From Parvularculaceae bacterium (lineage in GTDB: Bacteria; Pseudomonadota; Alphaproteobacteria; Caulobacterales; Parvularculaceae), in NCBI GenBank assembly GCA_021776435.1, contig JAJFFW010000041.1:6351-70350 (forward strand): 64,000 nt of DNA, read 5' to 3'. Under the pieces are notes generated by a model that did no database searches, had not been told where the DNA came from, and was given only the letters and a program-made list of their open reading frames with translations. Each line of letters starts with the position of its first letter. Within the stretch, counting starts at the first letter, position 1. Position numbers and translations under genes: made by a program. Of this stretch, positions 8,171-47,059 are shown one piece after another.

Positions 8171-8184
8171 GATAAAACAAAAAT

Positions 8185-8227: not shown

Positions 8228-8275
8228 TGCTTGCCTGTGACCTAAGAGCGCGATAGGAAGTGCCCCCTTAGGAAT

Positions 8276-8351: not shown

Positions 8352-8360
8352 CGCAGTCTG

Positions 8361-8759
8361 TTGTTTTTTCTCATATTTTCAGAAAGTCATGTAAGGTTCG
8401 AACTCGACCGCATTGCCGAGCGCCGCGGCTACCCTCTCATGATGGTCAGCGATAACGGGACGGAACTCACTTCAAACGCCATTCTTCAGTGGCAGGAAGA
8501 CCGCAAGGTCGAATGGCATTACATCCAGCCGGGAAAACCGATGCAGAATGGCTTTGTCGAGAGCTTTAAAGGGCGACTGCGCGATGAGTGCCTCAACGAG
8601 CATCTGTTCCGCAACTTCGCTCACGCACGAAACGTTATCGAAACATGGAGACGCGATTACAATCAGAACCGACCACACACGAGCCTCAACGGGCTCTCAC
8701 CAACCGAAGTTGCAACCCGGTCCACCTTGGATCATAACCAGAACAGGCCGAGCCTATAA
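8361..8759 (+). mobile_element. truncated IS3-family transposase (C-terminal part of the OrfB/rve DDE domain only)
   Basis: '...[61 protein letters not shown]...[28 protein letters not shown]' is the conserved C-terminal integrase-core segment. The N-terminal two-thirds, OrfA and the frameshift site are missing. Homology appears to start about 40 nt after the tRNA-Val 3' end. Confidence 0.8.
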
Positions 8760-24711: not shown

Positions 24712-26037
24712 TTATGCGGCTTTTCGCACTTTGGCTTTCTGCTGTGCGCTTTGCTCAGCCTCTTGTTGTCCAGTGATCAACCTCACTCCGCGCTGCCAAG
24801 TCAAATAGGACCAAATCCAGCTTAACCCGATGGTTATACGGTTTCGAAACCCAACAAGATAATAAATGTGTGCAAAGCTCCAAAGAAGCCAACCAAGGAA
24901 TCCGCTGAACCTGAGACCGTAAATATCTGCGATCGCCTTGCCGCGCCCGATCGTCGCCATTGAACCCATATCGTGATAGCGAAAGCTGCTAAGCGCCTTG
25001 CTGCTTCGATCTGTAAGAATGCGGCGCGCCACATATTTTCCCATCTGTTTGGCCACAGCGGCGACACCCGGTAGGGGCTCCGTGTCGCCATCGGGCGTAA
25101 GAGACGCTGTATCGCCGATGGCGAAAATATGAGGATGATCAGCAACGGACAAATCGTCCTTGACGATGATCCGACCCATATTGTCTGTTTCCGCAGCCAG
25201 CCATTTCCCTGCTGGCGACGCCTCAACGCCCGCAGCCCAGATAACCGTGCGGGCGGCGATATGGTGCTCGCCCATGTCGACACCGCCGTCATCCACATGA
25301 TTGACACGCGCGTTCAGGGCAATTTCCACACCCAGGCCTTCAAGATGTTGATGGGCTTTCGCCGACAATTTCGGGTTGAAACGCGACAGCACGCGTTCTC
25401 CGGCATCGGCAAGAATGATCCGAGCGCTGTCTGGGTTGATGTGACGAAAATCATAGACCAGGGAGCACCGAGCAAGTTCGGCGATAGCACCGGCGAGTTC
25501 CGCGCCTGTAGGTCCGGCGCCGACGATTATGAAGGTGAGCCACGCTTTGCGCTTCTCGGCATCGTCCTCCATCTCGGCTTTCTCAAAAGCGGTCAAAATA
25601 CGTTGGCGCAATTCAAATGCGTCATCAATGGTCTTAAGGCCGGGCGCCGCGCGGGCCCATTCATTTTTGCCAAAATAGCTGTGACGAGCGCCTGTGGCGA
25701 GGATGAGATAGTCATAAAAAAGCTGCCGCCCGCCTTTCGTCATTAAGGTTTTGGCTTTTGCATCGACGCCTTCGACTGTGTCCATGAAGACCGTCACGTT
25801 TTTGGCGTTACGGACAACGTGTCTGATCGGTGAGGCAATTTCCGCTGGCGTCAGCGCCGCCGTCGCCACCTGATAGAGCAAAGGTTGAAAGAGATGATAA
25901 TTGTGCCGATCGATCAGCGTTACATCGACTTCTGTATTTGCGAGCACTTTAGTCGCCTCAAGGCCGCCAAACCCAGCGCCGACAATTACGACATGCGGGC
26001 GCGCGTTCTCGCTCGCTTCATCTTGCTTATTGTGCAA
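24712..26037 (-). CDS. ndh: type II NADH:quinone oxidoreductase (NDH-2)
   Basis: 441 aa. Two Rossmann motifs 'VVIVGAGFGGLE' and 'FIIVGAGPTGAELAG', 'FAIGD', and a C-terminal membrane-association helix. Confidence 0.88.
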   Translation of the reverse strand: MHNKQDEASENARPHVVIVGAGFGGLEATKVLANTEVDVTLIDRHNYHLFQPLLYQVATAALTPAEIASPIRHVVRNAKNVTVFMDTVEGVDAKAKTLMTKGGRQLFYDYLILATGARHSYFGKNEWARAAPGLKTIDDAFELRQRILTAFEKAEMEDDAEKRKAWLTFIIVGAGPTGAELAGAIAELARCSLVYDFRHINPDSARIILADAGERVLSRFNPKLSAKAHQHLEGLGVEIALNARVNHVDDGGVDMGEHHIAARTVIWAAGVEASPAGKWLAAETDNMGRIIVKDDLSVADHPHIFAIGDTASLTPDGDTEPLPGVAAVAKQMGKYVARRILTDRSSKALSSFRYHDMGSMATIGRGKAIADIYGLRFSGFLGWLLWSFAHIYYLVGFRNRITIGLSWIWSYLTWQRGVRLITGQQEAEQSAQQKAKVRKAA

Positions 26038-26669: not shown

Positions 26670-27047
26670 CTATTTCGGGCAACCGTCCTCTTTGCACAGC
26701 GCGCGAACATAATTCATTAGCCCTTCTATTTCGTCAGTAGACAGCCGATTGCCCCATGGGGGCATCAACGAATCGAGAGTGTTTACCGGGCCCCCATGCG
26801 TGAGCGTTTTAATGATCATTGGGCCGGTAAATTTCGACATTTCCTTTGCCGCCGTAAGGTTCATTGGTCCAACAGGCAGCTCATCGACGGAGTTTATTCC
26901 ATTGCCAGTGCCGTCAACACCGTGGCATTGAGCGCAATACCAGTCGAAATTCTCTTTCGGCGTGGCGGCAAATCCCGGTGTCGTCTGCGCAAGGAAAGAC
27001 AGACTGGAGAGCGTTGCGATGGCTAGGTTGTACTTGGTTTTCATCAT
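26670..27047 (-). CDS. monoheme class-I c-type cytochrome (periplasmic)
   Basis: 125 aa. Signal peptide, one CXXCH (CAQCH), distal 'MPPWG' Met. Start overlaps the upstream stop (TAATG). Confidence 0.85.
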   Translation of the reverse strand: MMKTKYNLAIATLSSLSFLAQTTPGFAATPKENFDWYCAQCHGVDGTGNGINSVDELPVGPMNLTAAKEMSKFTGPMIIKTLTHGGPVNTLDSLMPPWGNRLSTDEIEGLMNYVRALCKEDGCPK

Positions 27048-27769
27048 TATTCTCCATCTTCGCCAAGGCTGGTGATATATTGGGCGAGCAGTCGCAATTC
27101 GTCATCCGTATACGCTTCGAAGGCCTCGTCGCCATAAACGGGCATGCGCCCATTGGGATAATAGCGAGCGTTATCCTGGAGCATGAAGTAGACCCAATCG
27201 CCATTCAGCCGCTGACCGCCTGTAGTAAATGATGGTCCGGTGAAACCGCCGATATTGCCACGCGAAGATGGGTATTCATGACAACCGAAGCAGACTTGCT
27301 TTTTGGTAAACAGCTTTTCGGCTTTGAATTCGACGCGACGGCTGAGCGGTTCATCCACCACTTCATCGATACTCATTTCAGCATCGACCAAGGACATTAG
27401 ATAGGCGCCGACATCTGCCGCCTCTGCTGTAGAAAGGGCTACATGATCATTGGCGCCTTTCACAAGTGTGCCGTATTTCACACGACGAATTGGGGTCGGA
27501 CTTTCAAGCCAGGTCAGCAACCAGTCTTCATTGAACTTGCTCCCTGCAAACCATAGTGGCGGGCCCTTTATCTTCGAGCGTTGCGCGACTGGCAGCGGTT
27601 CACTCGGGCCGGTCATTTGGTGGCAATTTTCGCAAGCTTTGGCGTCAAATATCTGCTTGCCTTCCGTTACGCCGGCCAATGCGGCAGGCGAGAGCACCCC
27701 CCCGGCGACGGCAAGCATGCCGGCGCCAATCAGGCCCTTGGCCAGGCCAAACAATTTTGTTCGCTTCAT
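27047..27769 (-). CDS. diheme c-type cytochrome (periplasmic)
   Basis: Two CXXCH sites (CENCH, CFGCH). Signal peptide 'MKRTKLFGLAKGLIGAGMLAVAGGVLSPAALA'. ATG at 27769 with GGAG upstream. Confidence 0.85.
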   Translation of the reverse strand: MKRTKLFGLAKGLIGAGMLAVAGGVLSPAALAGVTEGKQIFDAKACENCHQMTGPSEPLPVAQRSKIKGPPLWFAGSKFNEDWLLTWLESPTPIRRVKYGTLVKGANDHVALSTAEAADVGAYLMSLVDAEMSIDEVVDEPLSRRVEFKAEKLFTKKQVCFGCHEYPSSRGNIGGFTGPSFTTGGQRLNGDWVYFMLQDNARYYPNGRMPVYGDEAFEAYTDDELRLLAQYITSLGEDGE

Positions 27770-27831
27770 TGAGCACTCCAATTTCCGTTTTCCGTACACG
27801 CTGGTCAGAGCGCGTTCCGATCCCCCGCAGC

Positions 27832-30612
27832 TTATTTATCAGCTTCGGCCGTTCGCGACAAACCGTCCTCAGAGAAACCGAGCTTTCGCCGCAACATATC
27901 CCGATCCTCAAGGGTAAGCTCTCCATCTGGTATGATCCTGCGGATATTTTCCGTCAACGGCGCTTCGATTGTGGCCGGATCAACGGACTGGTCATATATT
28001 CTCCTCGCATCTGAAGCATTGGAGATTAATGTTCCGCCTGCTTTTGCGTTCTCGCGCGATAGATAGAACCACACATCGCGCGGCAACGAGCCGGGAATGA
28101 CCTCGCCATTCTCTGCCCGTTGATGATTTTGTCGGAAACCATCACTCTGGACATAGTCAACAATTTTGTCGATTTCGTCGCGAGTCAACGGGCCGCCAAA
28201 GCCATCGCCATTGCCAACACCCCAGGGCGGCATAAATTTGTCGAAGCGACCGGTATTGACGATTTTGAACATCGCCTGATGGGTCCGGTCAATATCCGCT
28301 TCAAGCGACAATCCGTCGATGCCCTCGCCGAACTGACCATGACAGCCGGCGCAATTGGCTTCAAACATCTGCTGGCCACTCAGACCGAGAACCGTGCCAT
28401 AGCCAACTTTGATTGGTTTGGAAGGTTGTAACGGGATGATGGTGCCGTCTTCGCGTTCCATCGGCTCGCGTTCGACGAGGCCCGCTTCATCAAAAATGAG
28501 AGGTGTCAGGATTGCAGCCTGCTCTTCTGTTGACTTCTGACGATATTTCATCCGCACCGTTCCATACCGGTTCGCGTCGTAGTGTTCGCCTTTCATCTTG
28601 GCGAACTCACGATTGTCTGCGCCGCCGACATTGATGACAACTTTTCCAGCGAGTAGGGGGGCGATCCCGTTAGAACCGTCGCCTTTGCTCGTATAAGCGA
28701 TGCCGTCGCCGTCATCATCCTCGCGAATGAATCCGGTATAGATTTCACCGGTTCGCTCGGATTCCGACTGCATGGAGCCACTCTGATCGACAGTCTGCAC
28801 CCACCAGCGCGAGAAGCGTTCAATCTGCGCATCGGTTCGGTGCGCCGGCGTCGCAAAGATCATCTCTCGCATAGCTGCGAGAGCGATGCCGACCCCGTAG
28901 GGTTCAACCACAACAGTGTCGTCGCCGAGCTGAGTGCGATAGACGCCGAATTCTTCAACCCAGTATTCGCTGTTGAGGAGGTTGAAGGTCTTGCGCGCCG
29001 CTGCCAGAAAGTCTTCGTCCTCGGTTAGATAATAGGCCGCCAAAAGCGCTCTAATGCCAGCCCAGTTGGGCGCGCTCAGATTGTTATCGCCAATCGATTG
29101 TCCGTCAACTGTATAAGACTCATTGAAAGATCCATCGGTATTTTGCACTTCGAGAAGGAAGCGGCCATTGCGCTCAACAATTTTCTGCGCGCGCCGGCTC
29201 GTCTTGGAATATTTCTCGAGAAGCTCCCAAGTTTGCGCCATATCTTGCAAGGCGACGATTGCCATCGTCATGTCGCGCATCGTTATTTGCGCGCCAGTTC
29301 CATTTTTAGGCGTCCATTCGGATACCAGAATGCCGTCCTTCAGGTGCATAGCCTCGATATTCTTGAAAACAGCGTTGGTTAGCGATTCCGCGACCAGCCC
29401 CATCTCTTTTTCGATGAACCCCCCGTCAACCGGCGGATTGTCTGTAAACACCATCGGGCGGCGCATTGCGGTCATGGCATAGGTGCTAGATCCCCAAATC
29501 CAGGACGCCTGGTCCCAGAGCTGGCTTGACTTGTCCTTGAGGCTCATCGACCAGAGGCGTTCCGGGATGTCGCCGACCCATAAAATGTTGGGTTCGATCT
29601 CATGGGGAATATAGCGCAGCCCTTGAGCCGGATCGTATTCGGCCGGATTGATGCCCATCAGCTTTTTGCCATCGGTGAACATCGACGATTTGACTTCGAG
29701 GATGGTGTTGGTCGCCGCCATCGTCAGACCCCAGCCGCGCATCCCTTCTTCGGCGTCATTACCCAGCATCGACACTTCAGTGCCGAGCGATACCGGCGAT
29801 ACCTCGTTATGCTCTGAGTGGAAAAAATAGTCCGACCACTGCATGCGCCGCTTCACAAATTGACCGATCGCGCCGAGATCGAAGGTCGTATTCATTTTGT
29901 CGGGATCGAAGCGTTGGGTGTAATCGTTCATATAAACGTTTGGTTGTCCCCAGCCACCCTTCTTATCGCTCATGGGGTCTTCGAAGCTGTCGGTATTGTC
30001 GAGCTTGCCTGTGAAATGAGGGTCAACCGACTTGTACTGGACGTAACTGACCTGAATGTCGTCAAAAACTCGCGGGAAGCCGGTCCGTTGATAAACCATC
30101 GGCAAGTACAGGCCGAGCATGATGTCTTTGTTGGAGAAGGTGCGCTCGCCGCGGTCGCGCTGGATCTTGTTATAGGACGAGTGACGCAGGGCCTGCATCG
30201 TCCAGTAAGGCGCATGCACCATATGGACGCCGGCGTGTCCGCGACCGCCGGTGTAATCGAGCAGATAGCGCGCGTAGAAATATATCTCCTTGGAAGTGAT
30301 CCATTGGAAGCCACGGCGATAGGCGACCGGCACACCGGCTTTGGCGAAGTCGTTGTAGCCCTCCATGCCAATCTTGAAGCCCTCATTGGCCATGAAGGTT
30401 GCGTCGTTCGTATAGAATCGCCGGTCCACAACTTTGCTGTCGAGAGGTGATCGATACATGCTGAGGTCGGGCTGTAGCGCGCCGCCCTTGATGTGAACGA
30501 TCCGGCCGTCCGGCGTGTAGAGTAGATTTTTGGCGATCACGATCGGTGTGATAAATAGACAGCCGCCGAGGATCAGTGCGATCACGCGTTTACGTGTTTT
30601 GGTACCTGTCAT
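27832..30612 (-). CDS. membrane-anchored 926-aa periplasmic protein of unknown family with C-terminal monoheme cytochrome c domain
   Basis: N-terminal anchor 'VIALILGGCLFITPIVIA'. About 700 aa that I cannot assign; the segment '...NGRFLLEVQNTDGSFNES...NWAGIRALLAAYYLTEDEDFLAAARKTFNLL' is reminiscent of alpha/alpha-toroid repeats. Then 'CAGCHG...FMPPWG'. Confidence 0.75.
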   Translation of the reverse strand: MTGTKTRKRVIALILGGCLFITPIVIAKNLLYTPDGRIVHIKGGALQPDLSMYRSPLDSKVVDRRFYTNDATFMANEGFKIGMEGYNDFAKAGVPVAYRRGFQWITSKEIYFYARYLLDYTGGRGHAGVHMVHAPYWTMQALRHSSYNKIQRDRGERTFSNKDIMLGLYLPMVYQRTGFPRVFDDIQVSYVQYKSVDPHFTGKLDNTDSFEDPMSDKKGGWGQPNVYMNDYTQRFDPDKMNTTFDLGAIGQFVKRRMQWSDYFFHSEHNEVSPVSLGTEVSMLGNDAEEGMRGWGLTMAATNTILEVKSSMFTDGKKLMGINPAEYDPAQGLRYIPHEIEPNILWVGDIPERLWSMSLKDKSSQLWDQASWIWGSSTYAMTAMRRPMVFTDNPPVDGGFIEKEMGLVAESLTNAVFKNIEAMHLKDGILVSEWTPKNGTGAQITMRDMTMAIVALQDMAQTWELLEKYSKTSRRAQKIVERNGRFLLEVQNTDGSFNESYTVDGQSIGDNNLSAPNWAGIRALLAAYYLTEDEDFLAAARKTFNLLNSEYWVEEFGVYRTQLGDDTVVVEPYGVGIALAAMREMIFATPAHRTDAQIERFSRWWVQTVDQSGSMQSESERTGEIYTGFIREDDDGDGIAYTSKGDGSNGIAPLLAGKVVINVGGADNREFAKMKGEHYDANRYGTVRMKYRQKSTEEQAAILTPLIFDEAGLVEREPMEREDGTIIPLQPSKPIKVGYGTVLGLSGQQMFEANCAGCHGQFGEGIDGLSLEADIDRTHQAMFKIVNTGRFDKFMPPWGVGNGDGFGGPLTRDEIDKIVDYVQSDGFRQNHQRAENGEVIPGSLPRDVWFYLSRENAKAGGTLISNASDARRIYDQSVDPATIEAPLTENIRRIIPDGELTLEDRDMLRRKLGFSEDGLSRTAEADK

Positions 30613-30678: not shown

Positions 30679-32193
30679 TTAAAAAATCACTTCCAGATTG
30701 GCCCGCAACACGAATGGCGGTGCTGGACCGAGGTCGGGCTCGATAACCCGAATGAGGCCGGACACGGTCATGCGAATTTGCGGATCCGGGCTGAAGATCA
30801 ATGAGGGGGCGACCATGCCGGTGAAGCCCCCCGAAAAGGAGGGTCTGTCGACGACGTCGAACACAAAAGCCTCGTCTCCGATCATCCCGCAGCCGCCGAC
30901 GGCGCCGGCGACGTCGACCGCGTCGCAGACGTGGATTTCCGGTTCCGGAATCTTGCCGGCATAGGAATCGTTTTGCTTATCGAACCCGACAAAGGTCAGA
31001 TCCATGGCCACAAAATCTTTGTAGATCGGCTTGACGAAGGATGCGAAATACGTGGTCGTGTCACCAAAATCGATACCGTCTTCTTCCTGTACGAATTTAT
31101 GGATCACGCCGATATGCCCGGCGCTGCGGCCCAGGAAGCTGTTGGGAGCGAACTGTCGAGTGAGGAATCCGCCGGTCAGGAAGCTAAAGTCGCCGGTGCC
31201 CGGCTGCAGGGTTGAAGGCAGGCGTCCATCGGCTGAGAAGCGACCAAAAATGCCGTCATTGAATGGAAAATCACCAATGAAGGCGTTGTCGAAATTCGCG
31301 CCGCCCGGAGCGAATGACAACGGCCCGGCAGACGGCGCGCCGAAAGCCCCGCCGTCGCCCATGGCCGGTCCATCACATAGCGCTCGATTGCCGAGATTGA
31401 AATTGTGAAAGAAGCATCTGGGATCGCCCCACACGCCCATATCCACATTCGCCTTCATGACCGCATCGAAACCCTGCGCCGCGATCGTGTTCGGAGGTTG
31501 CGGCCGTTTCGTCGTGACCCGTCCGTTCGAGCCAAAGGTCTCGTCATTGGCGCCGGTCGGAAAGAAGACGGCGCCGACAACGGCGAGGCCGAACGGATGA
31601 TTGCCCTGATCCCACACTTTTTTCTTGAGGAACACGCCGACGTCGCCGATCTCCTGCGTGCTGCCTGCGTTCTCTATGCTAATGAATTGTTGACCATTGG
31701 GATGAATGAAACCGTCAACGCTTGAACTCAGATAAGGCACGTTAACGCGGAGCGTGAAACCGTGAAGATACTTTCTGTTCAGGTCGAAACCATAGAGAAA
31801 ATCAAAATCGGTCAGATTGCGCTCGACTGTGGAATCTCCGAAGACGGCGAGGTTGGGAGATCCATTGCGAAAGAAGTCGTCGCCCTCGATACGCGTGTAA
31901 CGGTGGGTTAGTCCGACCGACACGGCGCCGGGGGGGAGAACGAAGGCATGCTGCGTAAAGGCAGGGCGCAAAAGCGGCGGAATAAAGGTCAGGATTTGCG
32001 TCTTGATCTGATTGCGCTCGAAGGCTTTTTGCTCTTCGCCTCCCAGCACGCCTTGCTCCGTACCCAATTCTAAATAGCGATCCGCTGCTGTGGGTTTATC
32101 TTTGTCCACATCTTCTTGAGCTTGGGCGCCGCCGCCCGCTGCAATCGAAAGAAGAAAAGCAAGACTTGCTCCGCTCCGGAGGAAATATTTCAT
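30679..32193 (-). CDS. outer-membrane beta-barrel protein (MetA-pathway/FapF-type transporter family-like)
   Basis: Signal peptide '...LLSIAAGGGAQAQ'. 'AVVGAVFFPTGAND' motif, alternating beta-strand pattern, C-terminal 'LEVIF'. No CXXCH. Confidence 0.7.
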   Translation of the reverse strand: MKYFLRSGASLAFLLSIAAGGGAQAQEDVDKDKPTAADRYLELGTEQGVLGGEEQKAFERNQIKTQILTFIPPLLRPAFTQHAFVLPPGAVSVGLTHRYTRIEGDDFFRNGSPNLAVFGDSTVERNLTDFDFLYGFDLNRKYLHGFTLRVNVPYLSSSVDGFIHPNGQQFISIENAGSTQEIGDVGVFLKKKVWDQGNHPFGLAVVGAVFFPTGANDETFGSNGRVTTKRPQPPNTIAAQGFDAVMKANVDMGVWGDPRCFFHNFNLGNRALCDGPAMGDGGAFGAPSAGPLSFAPGGANFDNAFIGDFPFNDGIFGRFSADGRLPSTLQPGTGDFSFLTGGFLTRQFAPNSFLGRSAGHIGVIHKFVQEEDGIDFGDTTTYFASFVKPIYKDFVAMDLTFVGFDKQNDSYAGKIPEPEIHVCDAVDVAGAVGGCGMIGDEAFVFDVVDRPSFSGGFTGMVAPSLIFSPDPQIRMTVSGLIRVIEPDLGPAPPFVLRANLEVIF

Positions 32194-32244: not shown

Positions 32245-32259
32245 GCAACTGGCGTGCCA
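32245..32259 (-). promoter_or_regulatory. sigma54 (-24/-12) promoter
   Basis: The minus strand reads cTGGCACGCCAGTTGCg, an exact TGGCAC-N5-TTGC, 52 nt upstream of the ATG at 32193. Confidence 0.7.
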
Positions 32260-32384: not shown

Positions 32385-32401
32385 TTGAACGAATGATTCA
32401 A
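32385..32401. promoter_or_regulatory. 17-bp palindrome, candidate enhancer (bEBP) site
   Basis: TTGAACGAATGATTCAA. 15/17 identical to the site at 38063-38079. About 130 nt upstream of the sigma54 promoter. Confidence 0.5.
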
Positions 32402-32425: not shown

Positions 32426-34795
32426 TCACTTTCGGCGACGAGCCCGACGAATGACAACCAAACCTGTTCCAAACACTAGGAATGCAATGAATAACGGCAG
32501 ACCACGAGTTTTCATTGGGTCTTCCGGAGCGGGCAAGACCAACCAGTACCAGGGCGTCAGGGTGTGTTTGGAGGCGATTTCCCCATTGCTGCCATTCCAG
32601 TTGGCGAACGAAATCGGAATGAATTCACCTTCATTAAAGGAAACATCGCGCGGATCTTCAGCCTGACGGCTGCGCGACATCATGACGCGCCAGCGGCCAT
32701 ACTGCCATTCTCCACTTGCGGTTACGGATTGATCATCGCTGCGCGGATGAAGCCTTTGATCGTCGCCGACACCATCTAAAATCGTGATCTTCGGCTCGAT
32801 AACAGGATCTGCGCTACCGGCGTTCCAGTACCAGATGGCAGTTGGATGCGACTTATCACCATGTCGGAAGAATGGCTTTTCGACCGTTGGTCCAGTCTGG
32901 AATGAACCCGCCGTGGGAAGCTGGATGGCCAGAGCATCGGAGAAGAGTTGCAAAGTACGGTCTTGCGTCGCCAGCGCATCCGCGTCGCCCGGCCGACTGA
33001 GCGTGCGGTCGTCTAACTCCAGCAGGATAGCGATGTCATCATCATTGTAGAGCAATCGCACTGTCAGAGCGTCGGAGAGCGGCTTGAAAAGCCTTTCCCC
33101 TTTCATGATGTTGGCGAGAAGCATCAGCGTTGTCGGTTTTGCGGAGGCCCAGACCTCGTCATTGACGTTATCGGGGAGGGGGCCATCGATTCTGACACCC
33201 TGAATCGTTCGTTCACGGCTAACTGGAGTTGTGTAGTTTCGTAGCGTGTAGACATAGTTGGCGATATGCCAACGGTCCTCTTCGTCGATCTTATCCTCAT
33301 GAGCTGGCATTGGCGTGCCTGGAATGCCGACCGATAGCCGTGTGAAAATATTGCGGATTGTCCCTTCGGTATCTTCGGCAATTTCCGTGACACGCCAGGT
33401 CCATGGTTTGGTGAGGTCGCGCGGCCAGATGCGGTTTCCCCATTCGTCTTTGAGTCGCTTATCGACGGATGGGTTGCCTCGACCATCCGTTCCGTGACAG
33501 ATCGAACAAGTTTTTTCAAATAGATTTTTCCCCAATGCAACAGAGTCTTCCGTAAACGGAACGGGATTTTCGGCCGTACTCCGTTCGATAACGCTAAGGG
33601 GTTTGTTCTTGTAGCGTCCTTCGTCGTCGAAATCGGCATCAGGCGCGTCCGCAGGCGCCCATGTCCCGACGAGGTCAAACCCCTTGACGACCTTGATTAG
33701 TTCCCGGATTTGAGCGTCGCTTAGAACGCTTTCCCATGCCGGCATCGCGGTTCCTGGCAGACCCGTTTTGATGGTGTGAAAGAGATCCTCGTCAGAAGGG
33801 GGATTCGTTTTGAACGGGGACGTTTTATATTTGAACATCCCGATTGTGAAATCACGAGGCGCCGGATACACAAATTCGGCGGCGGGTCCGTCACCCGCCC
33901 CATCTTCACCGTGGCATACGGCGCAATGCAGTTCGTAAAGATCGCGACCGTGCAGGTTTTGGCGTTCATTCTCGATCGTGTCTTTCATTGACGTCACCGC
34001 TTTGGAGACGTCTTGATTCCACATTCTCGGCACTTGCCCCACATGGTCGTAAAGGAAGGTGATGACGCTCCAAACTTCTTCCTCGCTCAACACGTCTTTC
34101 CAAACGGGCATTGCTGAGTTCCATGGAGCGCCTTCTTTTGGCAACCCAGGACCGCCGGTGGTGATGCGCCAGAACAAATAGGCTTCTTGCAACTGCGCGA
34201 TCGTTCCGACATCACGGAAATTAGCGGGTGGCGGATTCAGCCCTGGCGCAAATATACCGTGCCCATCGAGAAGGTCGCCATGGCAGAAAAAACAATTTGT
34301 ATAATAGATATCAGATCCCTTCTCCACGGTCCGTTGATAATTTGTGGCGGCGGCGTCTGGGTCCGTTTTGAATGTTTCGAGGATTTCGTTGCGGAGGGGG
34401 TTTTCCAACGAAGTGAGATCGAAGGTCTTGTCATAGGCCTGCAATTGGCGTGGAGGGGCCGGGTGGACCTGTCGCAATTCGACCGGCGCAATGAGGGATT
34501 GTTTGACAACAGAGAATGCAATCAACCCCGCTAGACCCGTCGCTAATCCAAGGAACGCCCACCGAATTGGCCATTTTCCCTTGTCCTCGAGTGTGGATTT
34601 GATCGGCGCTTTGAACTCAGCCCACCTGCTGTCGTCGAATGAATAAAAGAGCAACACACCCACTGCGATGATGATCATATACTGGGCGAGTACGGATTTT
34701 GGCATGACTGGAGGAAAGGCATTGTCGAGAATAAGATAAGCAACGACAAGAACGAGTACGGCCTGCAGTAGGGCGGGTATTTTGAATCTCTTCAT
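32426..34795 (-). CDS. membrane-bound triheme cytochrome c fused to a DOMON/EB_dh-like haem-binding domain
   Basis: 789 aa. N-terminal TM helices. Three CXXCH sites (CFFCH, CAVCH, CSICH). The C-terminal about 220 aa ('DALAIQLP...FRHGD...AIWYWNAG...GRWRVMMSRSR...ISFANWNGSNGEIASKHTLTPWYWL') follow the pattern of the ethylbenzene-dehydrogenase/NarI-type-II gamma-subunit domain. C-terminal TM 'LPLFIAFLVFGTGLVVI'. Confidence 0.8.
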   Translation of the reverse strand: MKRFKIPALLQAVLVLVVAYLILDNAFPPVMPKSVLAQYMIIIAVGVLLFYSFDDSRWAEFKAPIKSTLEDKGKWPIRWAFLGLATGLAGLIAFSVVKQSLIAPVELRQVHPAPPRQLQAYDKTFDLTSLENPLRNEILETFKTDPDAAATNYQRTVEKGSDIYYTNCFFCHGDLLDGHGIFAPGLNPPPANFRDVGTIAQLQEAYLFWRITTGGPGLPKEGAPWNSAMPVWKDVLSEEEVWSVITFLYDHVGQVPRMWNQDVSKAVTSMKDTIENERQNLHGRDLYELHCAVCHGEDGAGDGPAAEFVYPAPRDFTIGMFKYKTSPFKTNPPSDEDLFHTIKTGLPGTAMPAWESVLSDAQIRELIKVVKGFDLVGTWAPADAPDADFDDEGRYKNKPLSVIERSTAENPVPFTEDSVALGKNLFEKTCSICHGTDGRGNPSVDKRLKDEWGNRIWPRDLTKPWTWRVTEIAEDTEGTIRNIFTRLSVGIPGTPMPAHEDKIDEEDRWHIANYVYTLRNYTTPVSRERTIQGVRIDGPLPDNVNDEVWASAKPTTLMLLANIMKGERLFKPLSDALTVRLLYNDDDIAILLELDDRTLSRPGDADALATQDRTLQLFSDALAIQLPTAGSFQTGPTVEKPFFRHGDKSHPTAIWYWNAGSADPVIEPKITILDGVGDDQRLHPRSDDQSVTASGEWQYGRWRVMMSRSRQAEDPRDVSFNEGEFIPISFANWNGSNGEIASKHTLTPWYWLVLPAPEDPMKTRGLPLFIAFLVFGTGLVVIRRARRRK

Positions 34796-34802
34796 GGCGC
34801 CT

Positions 34803-35630
34803 TCAACCGTTCTGGCTTTCGAGAAATTTCACGATGGCCTCGAGTTCTTTGATCGTCAGTTCATCTACGAAGTAATCGGGCATCATCGGCTCGTAACCAT
34901 CGGCAATCACCGACATCGGATCGATGATGCTCTGGCGGATCTGTTCAGTGGTCAGGCGCGCCCCCACAGTTCTAAGATCGGGACCGATATCCACCTCGCT
35001 GTCGAGAATGCTGTGGCAGGCTGTGCAACCGTAATTCATCAAAAGGTCTGCGGCGGTCGCCGTCTCGCCAGAAACCGCAGGCTCAGCGGCGGAATCATTT
35101 GCAGGTTCCGGCGCCGGTTCGAGCCGGGCGGTCGGCAGAGCGACTGTCACATCGTGCCCGTCCTTGGATTCAAGAAACGCAATGATTGCGTCCATTTCCA
35201 TCTGAGATAGCTGAATCGGCGCTTGGTTGACCGGTGGCATGGGCGATATCTGGTCATCGGTGCCTTTCTTGCCAAAGCCCGGCACGACATAGGCGCTTGG
35301 TTCCGTCATCGATTCCCGAATATAGCTGGCAGCATCGACCGCATCTCCTTCATAGCCCTCAGCGGAGATCCGCGATGCAGAGGTGTCGACGACGTTTAAG
35401 GCCAGGAGGTCAGGCGCCCGCCCCATATTGTTGTGACATAACGCGCAAGTCCCTTTTCCTGTGAAAAGCTTTTCTCCCAATCGGGTGAAATCCGCCATCG
35501 TCAGTGAGCTGACGTCGATTGTTGTTTCCTCCGGCGGCTCGCCCTGCACTTGCGGCAAAAGGTTAGCGACCCCGGTGAAGACCAGAGTGAGGAGAAGGCT
35601 GAACCCCGCGACTTTTCCCAACACCCGCAT
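34803..35630 (-). CDS. diheme c-type cytochrome
   Basis: 275 aa. N-terminal anchor or signal. CALCH and CTACH. Start overlaps the upstream stop (TGATG). Confidence 0.85.
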   Translation of the reverse strand: MRVLGKVAGFSLLLTLVFTGVANLLPQVQGEPPEETTIDVSSLTMADFTRLGEKLFTGKGTCALCHNNMGRAPDLLALNVVDTSASRISAEGYEGDAVDAASYIRESMTEPSAYVVPGFGKKGTDDQISPMPPVNQAPIQLSQMEMDAIIAFLESKDGHDVTVALPTARLEPAPEPANDSAAEPAVSGETATAADLLMNYGCTACHSILDSEVDIGPDLRTVGARLTTEQIRQSIIDPMSVIADGYEPMMPDYFVDELTIKELEAIVKFLESQNG

Positions 35631-37486
35631 CAGCTTTGCTCAACATATGGTTTGCGTGTCTCGCCGAGCGACGCAAGCCAGAAAATGAATAGCACCATGA
35701 GTAAGAATAGCACTGTCACGATTGTCATCATGTTGCCCGCATAACCGATCGTCGGAATAAAATTATCAGGTGAGGCGTCCTTAAGAACACCATAAACGTG
35801 CCAGTGTCCGCGGACAGATGACCGGACATACCCCATCAACGCCATCAACCAGGTGAATGCTACCGGCAAAGCAAACAATGCGTATTGCGAGCGTTCGCTA
35901 ACTTGCCCCCAACGTGAGGGTAAAATCTTTGCGTTCCGATACATGAAAGAGTCGAGGATGACGCCGCTGATGATGACGAACAGTGTCGAGACCACCTGGA
36001 TCACGCTCGCTCCCACTTTGTAAACCGTGTTGGTGAAGTAGCCGTAATAAACGCCAGCGAAAATAACGTTGATAATCGCCACCAGATAGATCGCTGTCAT
36101 CAAGGCGTTGCCTGATTTTTCCCACGACACCGTCGCCACCTTGTCTGACCGCCTATAGAGCTGAAAAGAGAGGAAGGTGCAGATGAGCATCAAGTTCACG
36201 GCGATGTTCTTGGCGGGCATGATGCCTAGCGGTCCGAGAATATGATGGTGGCTGCCGCCGAGTGTGGCGATTTCGTCGGAAGACAAAATGAGCGTGTGCG
36301 GAGTGACCCAGACCAGAAAGCCCAGAACCAACACTCCCGCGATGTATTTGATAATCCAGTCGTATCGCTTCGAACCTTCCGAGCGCGACATGCCCGACCA
36401 CAGATAATAATTGGCGGCCAGCAAAATTGTACCGATCAAAACCGCCTGAACGATGAATAGCCAGGCGAGAATTCCGCCCATCGCGGTGATCCCCATCTGC
36501 TGTGAATACGCGTAAATTTCGGCCATCAACCAATACCCAGCGAAGGGCAGAGGCAGGAGCGCCAGAACAGCAATGAAATTGGCTGTGTAGCCCATCCAGT
36601 CGTAATGGGCTTTGTCCGCCTTCGTCGTTGAACTTAAAAATTTAAAAGCCGCATAAGCGCCCACCATTGCCCCGCCGAAGGCGATGTTGGCGATGAACCG
36701 ATGCAAATTGAGCGGGTTCCACAAGGGGCCCCTCATGATTTCCCAGATTCCGCCGGTCACGACACCAGCCTCGGTGACGCCGCTCGGCGCCATGGTGAAG
36801 GTGGCCCAGGAATTGGCGATGAAAAGCAAGCTCGTCCCAACGGCGTTGAGCAGTAGACCGAGCGTTAAATGGAGCCATTTGCCGTTGCCTGAGCTGAGGC
36901 GGCGCCAACTGTAGTAATAGATGTAAAGTAGCGTGCTCTCGGCAAAGAAAAGACCTGCATAGACTAACACCTGCGATCCAAAAACGCGCATTAAGAAGGC
37001 CATGAATCCGGGATAGAGAAGGAAGAGAACAAAAGACAGCGTGCCGCCTAAAAGCGCCGTTATGGAATAGGCGGTCAGGCTGATCTTCATGAACTCGTGC
37101 GCCATGTCGTCATATCGTCGATCGTGAGTGGTTTGCCCGATCCATTCGATGACGACGACAAAGAGTGGTACAGCGAGAACAAAGGCTGCGAAGAACAGAT
37201 GCAGTTGCGCCACCACCCATACGACCGATCGACTACTAACACCAATGTTCGGATAATCTCTCGGGCCAAGCTTCGGGGCGCCGACACTTTCCTCTGTCAC
37301 CGGAGGTGAGGTCAGATCTTGATCTGTGATGCCGGACGAGATCAACGTATCACTCGCCTGAGCCTCGACAGACCCCGCAGCCACTGCGGCTAGCAGAAAA
37401 ATTGCAAGCACAGCCCAAAACCGAAGACCGGGACGTGTCAAGCCTGTGCGCCACGTTGGCATTAATTTCTCCTTGAACATCATCAT
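35630..37486 (-). CDS. cytochrome bd-like oxidase subunit I (CydA) homolog, extended, without Q-loop
   Basis: Many TM helices (I estimate about 14). CydA-like motifs 'VAQLHLFFAAF' (His19-type), 'FFAESTLLYIYYYSW' (Glu99/Glu107 region), 'IANSWATFTMAPSG' (compare 'ANGWMQNP'), 'NPLNLHRFIANIAFGG'. Only a short loop where CydA has the Q-loop. No cydB nearby. First ATG at 37486; the ORF track begins at a TTG at 37489. Confidence 0.75.
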   Translation of the reverse strand: MMMFKEKLMPTWRTGLTRPGLRFWAVLAIFLLAAVAAGSVEAQASDTLISSGITDQDLTSPPVTEESVGAPKLGPRDYPNIGVSSRSVVWVVAQLHLFFAAFVLAVPLFVVVIEWIGQTTHDRRYDDMAHEFMKISLTAYSITALLGGTLSFVLFLLYPGFMAFLMRVFGSQVLVYAGLFFAESTLLYIYYYSWRRLSSGNGKWLHLTLGLLLNAVGTSLLFIANSWATFTMAPSGVTEAGVVTGGIWEIMRGPLWNPLNLHRFIANIAFGGAMVGAYAAFKFLSSTTKADKAHYDWMGYTANFIAVLALLPLPFAGYWLMAEIYAYSQQMGITAMGGILAWLFIVQAVLIGTILLAANYYLWSGMSRSEGSKRYDWIIKYIAGVLVLGFLVWVTPHTLILSSDEIATLGGSHHHILGPLGIMPAKNIAVNLMLICTFLSFQLYRRSDKVATVSWEKSGNALMTAIYLVAIINVIFAGVYYGYFTNTVYKVGASVIQVVSTLFVIISGVILDSFMYRNAKILPSRWGQVSERSQYALFALPVAFTWLMALMGYVRSSVRGHWHVYGVLKDASPDNFIPTIGYAGNMMTIVTVLFLLMVLFIFWLASLGETRKPYVEQS

Positions 37487-37617
37487 CAAGCTGGTTGTAA
37501 GATCCAGTTGAGTGGCAATCCCTGGCCTGCCATTATCGCTTGATCAATCGCGTAGAAAACTGCGGCGGTGGCCGTCAAGACAACGATCCAGATTATCAGT
37601 GAGCGACGCTCCTTCAT
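37486..37617 (-). CDS. 43-aa single-TM micro-protein, translationally coupled to the bd-like gene
   Basis: My own translation: MKERRSLIIWIVVLTATAAVFYAIDQAIMAGQGLPLNWILQPA. AAGGGA SD upstream. Its TGA stop overlaps the bd-like ATG (TGATG). Below the ORF-track size cut-off. Confidence 0.5.
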   Translation of the reverse strand: MKERRSLIIWIVVLTATAAVFYAIDQAIMAGQGLPLNWILQPA

Positions 37618-37984: not shown

Positions 37985-37999
37985 GCAACTTCCAGGCCA
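37985..37999 (-). promoter_or_regulatory. candidate sigma54 promoter (minus strand)
   Basis: The minus strand reads cTGGCCTGGAAGTTGCt. GG and GC have the correct 12-nt register. About 170 nt upstream of the ATG at 37814. Confidence 0.5.
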
Positions 38000-38062: not shown

Positions 38063-38079
38063 TTGAATGAATTATTCAA
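38063..38079. promoter_or_regulatory. 17-bp palindrome, candidate enhancer (bEBP) site shared by divergent promoters
   Basis: TTGAATGAATTATTCAA (extends to ATTGAAT-N5-ATTCAAT). An extra half-site TTGAAT lies at 38053-38058. Confidence 0.5.
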
Positions 38080-38205: not shown

Positions 38206-38220
38206 TGGCACGATTACTGC
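38206..38220 (+). promoter_or_regulatory. candidate sigma54 promoter (plus strand)
   Basis: tTGGCACGATTACTGCt. TGGCAC is exact and the -12 element is CTGC. Confidence 0.55.
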
Positions 38221-43491: not shown

Positions 43492-43836
43492 ATGTCGGAA
43501 GCTGGACCCGATAGAGTGCAAGAAGATTACTCACCGTCTGTGCGATTTAAGCCGTTACGGGTGATTATCGCTGTATTGGCCGCTACGCTTGCGGTGTCTG
43601 CTTACGCGAACTGGTATTCAGAGGAGGTATCGCTGCCGCGATATTGCGAGGATCCGGAGCAAAGCCTTCGCCTCTTGGAGAGCGTTATGACACAAGAACG
43701 CCCAGCGGGTGAGGAGAGTCGGCGACCTTATTTGATCGCCGCGAAACTTTTGTATCTGATCCCGCAAGAGGAGAGTGAATCTCTTTCCGCCTATCAAGCA
43801 CGCCTCCGTCAAGAACTGGTCAGCCGATGCCAATGA
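43492..43836 (+). CDS. 114-aa membrane-anchored hypothetical protein
   Basis: 'MSEAGPDRV...LRVIIAVLAATLAVSAYANWY'. Its 3' end overlaps the kinase gene start by 10 nt (43827-43836). The longer ORF-track version overlaps the upstream gene. Confidence 0.45.
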   Translation: MSEAGPDRVQEDYSPSVRFKPLRVIIAVLAATLAVSAYANWYSEEVSLPRYCEDPEQSLRLLESVMTQERPAGEESRRPYLIAAKLLYLIPQEESESLSAYQARLRQELVSRCQ

Positions 43837-45677
43837 ACCCTATGAGCGACGCCAATAAAGAGTCCCCTTGGGCGAATGTGACCATGTTCGCCATGATCAT
43901 CGGGATCGCGGTGATGATGCTTATGGGCGGGATGGCGGCGCATCTTTGGTGGACCGCTGGTGCGGCGACGCCTTCTGGTGACAGACCCGATGCCTTATTC
44001 AACGCCCTCAAACGGTTCGCCCCATTTTACGGCTTTACATTGATCTTGGTAGTAGCGCTGTCCGGTATGCTGGCGCATGCGATAGTCAAATGCTCTGAGG
44101 CGGAAAGCCGTATTGCCTTTGAGCGTCGCTTCCGAGAAACCCTCGGCGGCATCGGGTTGATGACCTTGGGCCTGGATGCGCAGGGCAAGATCACCGATTG
44201 CAACGACGTTTTTCTCCGTCTCGTCGGCCAAGGCATGAATGAGGTCTTCGGGTGCGACTGGATCGAATCCTTCGTCCCTGCCGTTGAACAACTCGAAACC
44301 AAGGCGGCGTTCTTGAAGGCGGCGTCGGGGCCGGCCCCGCATAAACATTATCAGTGCAAGATCGAGACCCGGTTGGGTCGCGAGCACATTATCTCCTGGG
44401 GCGTTTGGTCATTGCACGATCCGCTGAAAAAAACGGTCGGCTACACCTGTATCGGTCAGGATATTACAGAAGCCGACGAAATGAAGGAGCAATTGCGCAA
44501 GCTTTCCCACGCAGTAGAGCAAAGCCCGAGTGTGGTGATGATCGTCAATCTCGAGCAAAAGATCGAATATGTGAACCCCAAATTCACAGAGGCGACCGGT
44601 TACACTCTCGAGGAAATGCGCGGGAAGAACCCCCGTGTCCTGAAATCTGGGGAAACCAGCGCCGACGAATACAAGAATCTTTGGTCCACCGTCAAAGCAG
44701 GCGGTGAATGGCGCGGAGTGTTTCACAATCGTAAAAAGAGCGGCGAGTTGTTTTGGGAATCGGCGGTGATCTCGGCGCTGCGCGATGCTGACGGAGAAAT
44801 CACCCACTTTATTGCTGTCAAGGAAGACATCACGGAACGTGTGCGGCTGGAACACGAAGTTGCCGAGCGCAATCGCGAAATAGCCAAAAACCAGACCATG
44901 GCGGCAATCGGAAAAGTTGCGACGATGCTGGCGCACGACCTGCGTAATCCCTTGTCGTCGGTCAAGATGGGGTTGCAAATGTTATCCAAGAAACCGTCGC
45001 CCGAATGGGGCGAGGCCGAACAGGAACTACAGCAAATTGCGCTCCAGCAACTTCAATATACTGAGGAAATTTTGCAAAACCTGTTGAGTTATTCCCGTCC
45101 CGACGCCCTTCGGCTGGAGTGGCTCAACATCGGCAAGCTTCTCGACGTCGCCGTCTTCATCGCACATCGCGAGGTCGATGGACGTCTGGTCAAGATCACC
45201 ACCTGTCATCAGCACGGATTGCCGACGCTTTACGGAGACCCCGGAAAATTGAAACAAATGTTTTCGAACATCATCAACAATGCGGTCGAGGCGACCAAAG
45301 ATGTTGTCGGGCGCAAGCCGGAAGTCTTGATTTCGACCAATGTTGAGGTGATCGACGATGCGCCATGGATATTGGTGGAGATCAGCGATAATGGTGTCGG
45401 CATCGAATCGGGGACAAGTGACCAGCTGTTCGAGCCGTTCTTCACGACGCGGGCGAAGGGCACTGGCCTTGGCCTCGCAATTGTCAAACGCATCGTCGAT
45501 CAGCACCGCGGCTCTGTGCGTATGCAACGCGGATCACAATGTGGCACCGCAGTACGGATTCTGCTGCCGACGACCGCCGTTTTAGAAGACGTGGATCAGG
45601 GGTCCTCTGCGGTTGAACAATCGAGCCCTCCAATATTAGCGTCAATGGAATCGCATCATGATGGTGATATGTCATGA
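43827..45677 (+). CDS. PAS-domain sensor histidine kinase (NtrB/AtoS-like)
   Basis: Two N-terminal TM helices, two PAS domains, H-box 'LAHDLRNPLSS', N-box 'NIINNAVEA', G-boxes 'DNGVGI' and 'GTGLGLAIV'. Confidence 0.88.
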   Translation: MPMNPMSDANKESPWANVTMFAMIIGIAVMMLMGGMAAHLWWTAGAATPSGDRPDALFNALKRFAPFYGFTLILVVALSGMLAHAIVKCSEAESRIAFERRFRETLGGIGLMTLGLDAQGKITDCNDVFLRLVGQGMNEVFGCDWIESFVPAVEQLETKAAFLKAASGPAPHKHYQCKIETRLGREHIISWGVWSLHDPLKKTVGYTCIGQDITEADEMKEQLRKLSHAVEQSPSVVMIVNLEQKIEYVNPKFTEATGYTLEEMRGKNPRVLKSGETSADEYKNLWSTVKAGGEWRGVFHNRKKSGELFWESAVISALRDADGEITHFIAVKEDITERVRLEHEVAERNREIAKNQTMAAIGKVATMLAHDLRNPLSSVKMGLQMLSKKPSPEWGEAEQELQQIALQQLQYTEEILQNLLSYSRPDALRLEWLNIGKLLDVAVFIAHREVDGRLVKITTCHQHGLPTLYGDPGKLKQMFSNIINNAVEATKDVVGRKPEVLISTNVEVIDDAPWILVEISDNGVGIESGTSDQLFEPFFTTRAKGTGLGLAIVKRIVDQHRGSVRMQRGSQCGTAVRILLPTTAVLEDVDQGSSAVEQSSPPILASMESHHDGDMS

Positions 45678-47059
45678 GCAGGATACTGATCATTGACGAC
45701 GACCACGCGAGTTGCCGCACCTTGGAGCTCCATTTTCGAAGCCAAGGGCATGACATTCATCTCGCGCACAACATGGAGCAGGGTTTCGTAAAGATCGAAG
45801 GTACTAAGCCGGAACTCATCATCCTCGATATCCGAATGCCTGGGATGGACGGCCTGGAAGGATTGCCGCATATCAATGAAATGGCGCCCGACACGCCGGT
45901 TATTATGATTACGGCCTTTCATGACATGGAAAGCACGATCCAGGCGATGAAGCGGGGCGCCTGCGATTACATACAAAAGCCGATTGATATAAACGAGCTC
46001 AACGCTGCTGTAAGCATGGCGTTGACTCGGTTGAAGCTATCGGACTCAGAGCTCGCCGCTGGTGAGGTCCGTGGAACTGTGTCCGCTTCTAGCAGCATGG
46101 TCGGTAGTAGCCGATCGATGAAGGAAATTTACAAGATCATCGGTGTGATCGCCCCAAAACCACTGACCGTTCTGATCGAAGGTGAAAGTGGGACGGGTAA
46201 GGAACTGGTGACGCGCGCGATTCATGACGCCAGCGCCAATGCATCGGGCCCATTCGTCGCCGTCAATTGCGCGGCGCTGGTCGAGACGTTGATCGAGTCC
46301 GATTTATTCGGGCACGAAAAGGGAGCGTTCACGGGCGCAGTGCGTCGCCAGCCCGGCAAGCTCGCCATGGCCAATAATGGAACCATCTTTCTTGATGAGG
46401 TTGGTGAGCTCTCCCCAAAAATTCAGGCGAAACTTCTACGTATTCTTCAGGAACGGGAATATGTTCCGGTCGGCGGGACACAGGTTTGTTATACCAACGC
46501 CCGGGTCGTCGCTGCGACCAATGTCGACCTGCTGGAACAAGTTCGTCTCGGTAAGTTTCGCGAGGACCTTTACTACCGACTTCAAGTTGTGACTATACGC
46601 CTCCCGCCCTTGCGCGAGCGAATAGAAGATATCCCTGAGCTTGTTCAAGCATTGCTTGTACGGGTTAATCAGGAATTGCGCTGTAAGGTCGGCGGTGTAT
46701 CAAACGGTGTGATCGATGCTTTCTATGCTCATCAATGGCCAGGAAATGTCCGTGAGCTGGAGAATGTGTTGATGAAGGCAGTCGCTCTTTGTTCTGGTGA
46801 AATTATCACCGAGGAGCTGATTCCCGAATATATGCGGCGGCGCGAACCGGTATCGAAAAGCCTCGGAAAACCCGTGGCCCAATTGTCGTTGAAGGAAGCG
46901 GATGTTCAACATGTCGCGCGGATATTGGAGTCGACCAACTGGCACCGAGGACGAGCCTGTGAGATCTTGGGAATCTCGCGCCCTCGCTTACGTCGGATAA
47001 TGGTCGAGGCGGGTCTAGATGTGCCCCCCCATGTCACCGCCGAAGATGACGACGCCTGA
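45674..47059 (+). CDS. sigma54-dependent response regulator (NtrC/AtoC family bEBP)
   Basis: REC ('ILIIDDD...LDIRMPGMDG'), AAA+ ('GESGTGKE', 'GAFTGA' sigma54-contact loop, 'FREDLYYRL'), C-terminal Fis-type HTH. ATGA overlap with the kinase gene. Confidence 0.9.
   Translation: MSRILIIDDDHASCRTLELHFRSQGHDIHLAHNMEQGFVKIEGTKPELIILDIRMPGMDGLEGLPHINEMAPDTPVIMITAFHDMESTIQAMKRGACDYIQKPIDINELNAAVSMALTRLKLSDSELAAGEVRGTVSASSSMVGSSRSMKEIYKIIGVIAPKPLTVLIEGESGTGKELVTRAIHDASANASGPFVAVNCAALVETLIESDLFGHEKGAFTGAVRRQPGKLAMANNGTIFLDEVGELSPKIQAKLLRILQEREYVPVGGTQVCYTNARVVAATNVDLLEQVRLGKFREDLYYRLQVVTIRLPPLRERIEDIPELVQALLVRVNQELRCKVGGVSNGVIDAFYAHQWPGNVRELENVLMKAVALCSGEIITEELIPEYMRRREPVSKSLGKPVAQLSLKEADVQHVARILESTNWHRGRACEILGISRPRLRRIMVEAGLDVPPHVTAEDDDA

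Follow-up and report, generated by a model that had tools for sequence, protein, structure and literature searches.

What does a large non-haem domain do when it is covalently tied to an electron-transfer haem? The question is raised by a gene in a 64,000-nucleotide stretch of a Parvularculaceae bacterium genome (contig JAJFFW010000041.1 of assembly GCA_021776435.1; hereafter the window), which encodes a protein of 926 amino acids (aa) that carries a class I cytochrome c domain and lies downstream of a unit encoding a bd-like oxidase. The original prediction, made from the sequence alone, saw in it a candidate substrate-oxidising dehydrogenase that would determine what the neighbouring system respires on. 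We found this idea to be borne out in part: a conserved alpha/alpha toroid, which belongs to an enzyme-type superfamily and to no known structural family, makes up the non-haem domain, and the constant partner of the toroid protein is an outer-membrane barrel and not the bd-like oxidase.

An exported toroid-cytochrome c protein

The gene (27832..30612) is an uninterrupted open reading frame of 926 codons that lies on the minus strand rather than on the plus strand. Its product is a real, exported protein from a family without earlier description; its homologues form 95 clusters (39-100% identity, many phyla), public records label the members 'c-type cytochrome' or 'hypothetical', and the family was not described in the literature that we searched. 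Residues 1-27 (30532..30612, minus strand) make up a Sec signal peptide with predicted cleavage after Ala27, between VIA and KN. Comparison of the 95 homologues showed such peptides, ending in A-x-A, at every complete N-terminus, and directly after them a conserved mature sequence, K-N/V-x-L-Y-T-P-D-G-R; in the model of the window protein, a helix at 3-20 is followed by a segment with a predicted local distance difference test (pLDDT) score below 50. Since the signal peptides are cleavable throughout the homologues, the single N-terminal membrane anchor first assumed is rejected, and so is a lipobox, because the Cys within the signal peptide of the window protein is not conserved as one. Once cleaved at Ala27, the protein is predicted to be soluble in the periplasm.

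The AlphaFold2 model of the 926-aa protein (40 homologues as input; pLDDT 87.2, predicted template modelling score, pTM, 0.90) presented, in this order, about 14 long helices (residues 65-610), a beta-rich linker, the cytochrome domain and a helical tail, and the mature protein bears a conserved N-terminal hairpin. The C-terminal tail is charged, as had been noted, and its final 10 residues are disordered. Although a scan with Pfam and NCBIfam matched nothing besides the class I cytochrome c domain, so that the roughly 700 residues said to be unplaceable are indeed so for sequence models, the fold could be placed. On the basis of the model helices and Foldseek, an (alpha/alpha)6 toroid spans about residues 65-615 (28768..30420, minus strand), and the stretch from NGRFLLEVQ to LLNSEYW (483-551), in which toroid repeats had been suspected, falls within its helices. 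Foldseek searches against the PDB returned AGE-type toroids (cellobiose 2-epimerases, YihS and N-acylglucosamine 2-epimerases) at E values from 4e-5 to 1e-3; these matches are weak, with template modelling (TM) scores on the target of 0.45-0.6 and identities of 8-13%. The 30 matches at E<=1e-3 were all AGE-type toroids save one chain pair, that of the alpha-amylase CPF_2247 (PDB 3ren), and the top one was a thioredoxin-fused toroid, 7tkv (Bab1_2064), in which, as in the 926-aa protein, the toroid is joined to a redox domain.

Sequence comparisons with the AGE family went little further. The PF07221 model did not match the 926-aa protein at E<=1 and matched weakly in 15 of the 40 homologues (best E=6e-6), with homologue P0217 at 20.6 bits falling short of the gathering score of 23.4; PF06662 gave weak matches in 25 of the 40. 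When the family profile (A3) was compared with E. coli YihS by hhalign, 31 columns of one hairpin were aligned with a probability of 0.4%, and a family hidden Markov model (HMM) searched against the PDB aligned only that same hairpin repeat motif. As judged from the model, the toroid thus belongs to the AGE superfamily at the level of the fold only. It has the same six-hairpin fold and a common hairpin motif with the AGE barrels (cellobiose 2-epimerase, N-acylglucosamine 2-epimerase, YihS; PF07221) but, unlike those enzymes, the 926-aa protein is exported, has a toroid of some 550 residues with insertions, carries a DxDxDG loop, is fused to cytochrome c and is paired with a barrel. With an alignment confined to one hairpin, no counterpart could be aligned with the catalytic His pair of YihS (His248/His383).

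We then compared 23 toroid sequences spanning all clades, haem-less and distant members included. Residues W259, Y326, Y334, H337, D360, D367, N418, H423, R582, E617 and E623 were invariant or nearly so, H337 and E623 being kept in 22 of the 23. Downstream of them lies a DxDxDG loop (D632, D634, D636 and G637; 28702..28719, minus strand), of which the three Asp were invariant and the Gly was present in 21 of the 23; by its motif, this loop is a candidate calcium site. A clade without the fused haem, described below, retained essentially all the residues invariant in the haem clade, and a search for residues specific to the haem clade that could act as cofactor ligands yielded only a short insertion (D212, K217, W221).

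One-electron carriers around an unchanged toroid

The cytochrome domain (residues 745-823; 28144..28380, minus strand) matched PF13442 with 37.4 bits (cut-off 27) and PF00034 with 30.4 bits (cut-off 21.3), in both cases above the gathering score. The haem motif CAGCH is at 754-758 (nt 28339-28353) and the distal-ligand motif FMPPWG, with axial Met794, at 793-798; C754, C757, H758 and M794 are at least 90% conserved among the 40 homologues, and the domain is a class I cytochrome c, as originally proposed. Its profile matches were to CcoP, the cytochrome domain of cd1 NirS and c6, and a sequence search of the PDB with the whole protein yielded cytochromes only. Exactly one CxxCH was found in 89 of the 95 homologues. 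Four of the six exceptions are fragments, and the other two are complete Gemmatimonadota proteins; in the one with downstream DNA (P0084), the gene for a 729-aa toroid protein is directly followed by a separate gene for a 148-aa cytochrome c. The toroid region was used for a maximum-likelihood tree, which places a single gain of the cytochrome at the root of the two haem-bearing clades (support 100/99) and requires one loss, in Gemmatimonadota; this 'loss' is a gene fission.

The sister clade lacking the haem (KSB1, Saprospiraceae, Cytophagia and Thermoanaerobaculia) has toroid proteins of 662-677 aa and no cytochrome neighbours. Directly upstream of the barrel gene, its loci carry a 220-aa gene whose only Pfam label is CarboxypepD_reg-like. 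An alignment of seven such proteins (A5) disclosed an invariant His...Cys-x2-His-x2-Met pattern (H113, C150, H153, M156), and their profile could be aligned over the full length of amicyanin (E=3.6e-6), which brought the copper ligands into register. By these sequence features, the accessory protein of the related loci is identified as an amicyanin-type type 1 copper protein, which the Pfam cupredoxin models miss. The amicyanin-like cupredoxin fusion adjoins 11 haem-bearing loci and all six haem-less ones, and no copy was found within the 64-kb window. In two further, distant toroid proteins, cytochrome c genes come next. The reading that the haem-less clade points to a non-redox function is rejected, in view of its copper protein and of the fission that accounts for the loss in Gemmatimonadota. 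Since the carrier has been fused, split off and substituted around an unchanged toroid, selection appears to act on electron transfer to or from the toroid or the toroid-barrel complex, and such a functional link to one-electron carriers is what would be expected of an oxidoreductase.

The copper proteins form an exported family of about 220-295 aa in which the amicyanin-like type 1 copper domain is joined to a transthyretin/CarboxypepD_reg-like sandwich. Members are found at 7799-8467 in locus L043, 7817-8473 in L045, 8645-9481 in L004, 7363-8151 and 12475-13988 in L005, and 13044-13931 in L006, and Gemmatimonadota loci hold up to four copies.

The outer-membrane barrel is the constant partner

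Upstream of the toroid gene, a gene on the same strand (30679..32193, minus) encodes a 504-aa outer-membrane beta-barrel protein with a signal peptide and a C-terminal Phe. We assembled 42 non-redundant loci, consisting of the window, loci reached via homologues and GTDB genomes. In 39 of the 40 with upstream DNA, a barrel homologue stood directly upstream of the toroid gene and on the same strand, which makes it an obligate partner, whereas a bd-like oxidase gene was located within 10 kb of the toroid gene in only 6 of the 42. The pairwise identities of toroids and barrels across 32 loci were strongly correlated (r=0.93), with means of 47% and 48%, respectively. The pairing with the barrel is thus established, and the place in a bd-like system that was first assigned to the toroid protein does not hold across the family.

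The AlphaFold2 model of the barrel (pLDDT 83, pTM 0.75) was matched by Foldseek to FapF (5o65/5o67, E 2e-12) and to the COG4313 channel 4rl8 (TM on the target 0.79); PF13557 gave 19.1 bits, below its gathering cut-off of 22. DSSP counted about 15 strand elements in the model, the nearest folds being the 12-stranded FapF/COG4313 barrels. It is known that COG4313 channels have 12 strands, use their N-terminus as a plug and are implicated in the uptake of hydrophobic molecules (PMC4493636). The window barrel resembles COG4313/FapF proteins (PF13557; 4rl8, 5o65) in fold and in a conserved N-terminal segment before the first strand, comparable to the lumen-occluding plug of Pput2725, but it is about 200 residues longer, has a large inserted loop and is obligately paired with the toroid gene.

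A second module, 34% identical to the first as a pair, was found in the same genome on contig C60 (locus L010, 9771-14417). Its 519-aa barrel protein carries a class I cytochrome c (residues 34-109) fused N-terminally to a FapF-like barrel, and is followed by a 756-aa toroid-cytochrome c; a 153-aa gene of the plastocyanin/azurin family is divergently placed, and TamB/Omp85 genes adjoin this module. The arrangement recalls Cyc2 of iron oxidisers, a single polypeptide with an N-terminal CxxCH haem and a 16-stranded OprO/OprP-like porin (PMC8406198 / bioRxiv 10.1101/228056), inasmuch as an outer-membrane barrel is tied to a mono-haem c-type cytochrome, by fusion in the case of the C60 paralogue. 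However, the window barrel is haem-free and FapF/COG4313-like, and its main partner is a toroid protein of some 900 residues. We therefore rejected its membership in Cyc2: it has no CxxCH, its fold is of the FapF/COG4313 type, and the C60 fusion is built on that same type.

Two observations concern the barrel gene itself. Proteobacterial barrels contain an insertion of about 100 residues (barrel residues about 227-335) with helices and conserved Cys pairs, which is absent in the C60 paralogue and absent or much shorter in the aligned copies from Planctomycetota, Gemmatimonadota and locus L006. In a Methylococcales locus (L001, 6314-9974, on a 1.4-Mb contig) crowded with transposases, the insertion of an IS66-family transposase splits the barrel gene and leaves the toroid gene intact.

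Distribution and neighbourhoods

Carriers of the module were found in at least 10 phyla, including Alpha- and Gammaproteobacteria, Methylococcales, NC10, Nitrospinota, Gemmatimonadota, Planctomycetota and Bacteroidota. Among the 301 alphaproteobacterial genomes sampled, five had the pair, each from a different family, and in Shewanella hanedai JCM 20706 and other Gammaproteobacteria it stands alone among unrelated genes. The toroid-barrel pair looks like a mobile accessory module. The terminal systems beside it vary (a bd-like oxidase; an Idr/Aio-like molybdoenzyme with peroxidases and COX1; or none), as would fit a unit through which electrons enter a shared pool of carriers.

In a metagenome-assembled genome of Planctomycetota (L004, 8645-18639), two di-haem peroxidase (CCP_MauG) genes immediately follow the pair, and the region goes on with a 184-aa gene, an Aio/Idr-like Rieske-molybdopterin enzyme, a porin, a cytochrome c and COX1. 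It is an iodate-reductase-like or arsenite-oxidase-like respiratory island; the toroid-barrel pair is not mentioned in the iodate-reductase literature. Distant toroid copies (in proteins P0222, P0225, P0226 and P0230) have another context: they are part of a protein with a type IX secretion system (T9SS) tail and of giant proteins of 1,800-5,500 aa, and the two giant proteins that were scanned (P0225 and P0226) carry the surface-protein domains DUF11/SdrD_B/GEVED. The wider superfamily thus appears to work outside the cell as well.

Operon and regulation in the window

Downstream of the toroid gene, the next gene (27047..27799, minus strand) encodes a 250-aa di-haem cytochrome c with two cytochrome c domains, and a homologue also follows the toroid gene in loci L011, L012, L013, L014, L026 and L037. 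Beyond it lies the gene for a 125-aa mono-haem cytochrome c (26670..27047, minus strand; PF13442/PF00034), co-located in L011, L013, L014, L026 and L037. Just downstream of these cytochrome genes, on the same strand (24712-26037), is a gene for a 441-aa flavoprotein similar to NDH-2 and sulfide:quinone reductase, with an NDH2_C domain, which was not found to be conserved next to the module elsewhere.

The bd-like unit upstream of the barrel gene (32426..37489, minus strand, by Pfam) is made up of a bd-like CydA homologue (35630-37489), a 275-aa cytochrome c (34803-35630) and a tri-haem c plus EB_dh haem b protein (32426-34795), all on the minus strand and assigned by Pfam. This composition matches that of the TO_1 bd-like oxidase cluster of Nitrospirota and of the OR-N bd-family oxidases (bioRxiv 10.1101/2021.11.15.468770; 10.1101/2021.01.16.426971), as well as that of the bd families without a quinol site, in combining a bd-like CydA, cytochromes c and a periplasmic EB_dh haem b protein. 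However, TO_1 as published excludes both the toroid protein and the barrel, and 36 of the 42 toroid loci have no bd-like gene nearby, so that the toroid gene is not regarded as encoding a subunit of a TO_1/OR-N complex.

A perfect match to the sigma54-type -24/-12 promoter pattern, TGGCACGCCAGTTGC, is situated 52 nt upstream of the barrel ATG (32245..32259, minus strand), and a palindrome, TTGAACGAATGATTCAA (32385..32401, no strand assigned), represents a candidate enhancer-binding site upstream of the same gene. The pattern TTGAA-N7-TTCAA occurs three times in the window against 0.17 expected, and a near-identical second palindrome (38063-38079) lies between the bd-like operon and a divergent haem-tailoring operon (USP/PCP_red, a radical SAM-SPASM protein and an amine-oxidase-type flavoprotein). 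Both of these operons have -24/-12-type motifs as well, at 37985-37999 for the bd-like operon and at 38206-38220. These motifs suggest that the barrel unit, the bd-like operon and the haem-tailoring operon form one regulon. The window also encodes an NtrC-type sigma54 activator (45674-47059) and a PAS histidine kinase (43827-45677), homologues of which flank the pair in several other loci from other phyla. A strict search for TGGC[AC][CT]-N5-[TC]TGC upstream of the barrel genes (upstream of the cupredoxin genes in the haem-less clade) was positive in 2 of 30 other loci; the predicted sigma54 control would accordingly hold for this genome and its nearest relative, and not family-wide. Because the sigma54-type promoters and the palindrome are common to both units, a link of the toroid unit with the bd-like operon is plausible here: co-regulation with the bd-like oxidase is a plausible feature of this organism and no rule for the family.

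Proposed function

Taken as a whole, we give about even chances to the reading that a portable module of outer-membrane channel, periplasmic oxidoreductase and one-electron carrier here feeds the bd-like oxidase; the most likely role of the toroid is that of the substrate-handling part of such a module. The 926-aa protein would combine, in soluble periplasmic form, a toroid that has a calcium motif and a conserved polar pocket with a single, rigidly attached c-type haem of the His/Met kind. The FapF/COG4313-type barrel would admit a small, possibly hydrophobic or amphipathic, molecule through the outer membrane, and the toroid would bind and transform it, with single electrons passing between the toroid site and the fused haem and then the periplasmic cytochrome c or cupredoxin pool. 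In this organism the likeliest path would run from the substrate through the toroid and its own haem c to the 250-aa di-haem and 125-aa mono-haem cytochromes c, the tri-haem c/haem b protein, the bd-like oxidase and finally oxygen.

Known systems offer a partial precedent. In type II alcohol dehydrogenase and in the methylamine dehydrogenase-amicyanin pair, a periplasmic domain is likewise wired to a class I cytochrome c or to an amicyanin-type cupredoxin, and in the toroid family, as in quinohaemoprotein and quinoprotein dehydrogenases, the carrier is fused or unfused in sister clades. Unlike the quinoprotein dehydrogenases, the toroid is not a beta-propeller, pqqC is absent, and there is neither a partner of the tryptophan tryptophylquinone (TTQ) type nor a conserved Cys.

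Several results weigh against an oxidoreductase. The toroid has no recognisable redox cofactor site: the search for conserved metal or cofactor ligands, which the original prediction had called for, disclosed neither a conserved Cys nor a second set of metal ligands, and H337 and H423 are the sole invariant His. The pqqC gene (TIGR02111) is missing in this genome, which is 98.6% complete, and in 7 of 9 carrier genomes and, the fold being a toroid, pyrroloquinoline quinone (PQQ) was rejected as the cofactor. The known fold relatives are non-redox isomerases, epimerases, hydrolases and lyases, and since the same pocket residues are present with or without a fused haem, the chemistry would be independent of the fusion itself. 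That no redox centre could be recognised in the toroid is the main weakness of the enzyme reading. The substrate-oxidising dehydrogenase first proposed keeps an enzyme-type fold and a carrier link under selection but lacks a recognisable redox cofactor site. Our analysis shows the fold, the signal for export, the haem motif, the pairings with barrel and carrier, and the promoter and palindrome motifs common to both units; that the toroid is catalytic and redox-active, which way the electrons flow and what kind of substrate is involved are matters that we infer.

A bolder version, which we hold only tentatively, is that the toroid is a new redox catalytic domain without a classical organic cofactor, whose substrate is oxidised stepwise by the adjacent c-haem or by a docked amicyanin-like protein, and thus a new electron-entry enzyme that many phyla have plugged into their own terminal oxidase or reductase. 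A small electron-rich molecule arriving through the COG4313-type channel, for example a phenol, a hydroquinone, a sugar that forms an enediol or a metal ion, would be bound and deprotonated in the conserved Tyr/His/Asp/Arg pocket, and oxidation would proceed one electron at a time.

Alternative explanations

The toroid might instead be a non-catalytic electron-transfer scaffold that docks on the barrel at the inner face of the outer membrane and holds the c-haem there, so that an entering redox-active solute (Fe2+, Mn2+, a quinone or another shuttle) reacts by outer-sphere transfer, as in a functional analogue of Cyc2. The absence of a cofactor site from the toroid would be natural for such a scaffold, barrel and toroid evolve in lock-step, the conserved N-terminal hairpin of the mature protein could serve docking, and the C60 paralogue, with its class I cytochrome c on the barrel N-terminus, follows the design principle of Cyc2. 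We nevertheless consider this explanation unlikely. The haem-less clade keeps the toroid and all the pocket residues beside a separate cupredoxin, and a conserved pocket and a DxDxDG loop are hard to explain in a scaffold; moreover, the barrel is FapF/COG4313-like and not of the 16-stranded OprP-like type of Cyc2, and Fe(II) oxidation inside the periplasm would bring encrustation. Slightly less probable again is a flow of electrons in the opposite direction, in which the pool of cytochromes c or cupredoxins would supply the toroid by way of the fused haem. The toroid would then be a terminal reductase or a detoxifying enzyme for a reactive or oxidised small molecule, for instance a by-product formed by neighbouring oxidases or in iodate reduction. 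Cytochromes c or pseudoazurin/amicyanin-type proteins are the usual electron donors of periplasmic reductases; the peroxidase genes and the Idr/Aio-like molybdoenzyme next to the Planctomycetota pair, the Redoxin/AhpC-TSA genes beside distant toroids and the thioredoxin fused to the toroid of 7tkv point the same way. However, no catalytic metal or cofactor site is evident in the toroid, neighbours of this sort are missing at the stand-alone gammaproteobacterial pairs, and the Redoxin genes may merely serve cytochrome c maturation.

The fold itself invites an explanation without redox chemistry, namely that the protein is a carbohydrate-active enzyme (an epimerase, isomerase, lyase or hydrolase) whose substrate is a glycan, either imported or from the envelope, with the cytochrome incidental or regulatory. 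The weak Pfam matches, like the fold, point to sugar epimerases and isomerases, the invariant Tyr/His/Asn/Arg/Asp/Glu set would resemble the active sites of sugar-acting enzymes, and distant relatives occur in T9SS-secreted and giant surface proteins. Yet an electron carrier persists through fusion, fission and replacement by a cupredoxin, cytochrome-rich neighbourhoods recur, glycan-metabolism genes are not conserved beside the pair, and the alignment with YihS is not significant outside one hairpin motif. We regard this as the most improbable of the explanations considered.

Implications

If the toroid of the portable channel, oxidoreductase and carrier module is redox-active, it would be the first (alpha/alpha)6 barrel to serve as a dehydrogenase or reductase, and the module a self-contained, horizontally mobile unit of channel, enzyme and carrier that feeds or drains respiratory chains in at least 10 phyla. 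It could also reveal an electron donor of the enigmatic bd-like (OR-N/TO_1) oxidases, and a cultured, non-pathogenic carrier exists in S. hanedai JCM 20706. Even if the toroid were a mere scaffold, the strict association of barrel, toroid and carrier would represent an undescribed envelope complex.

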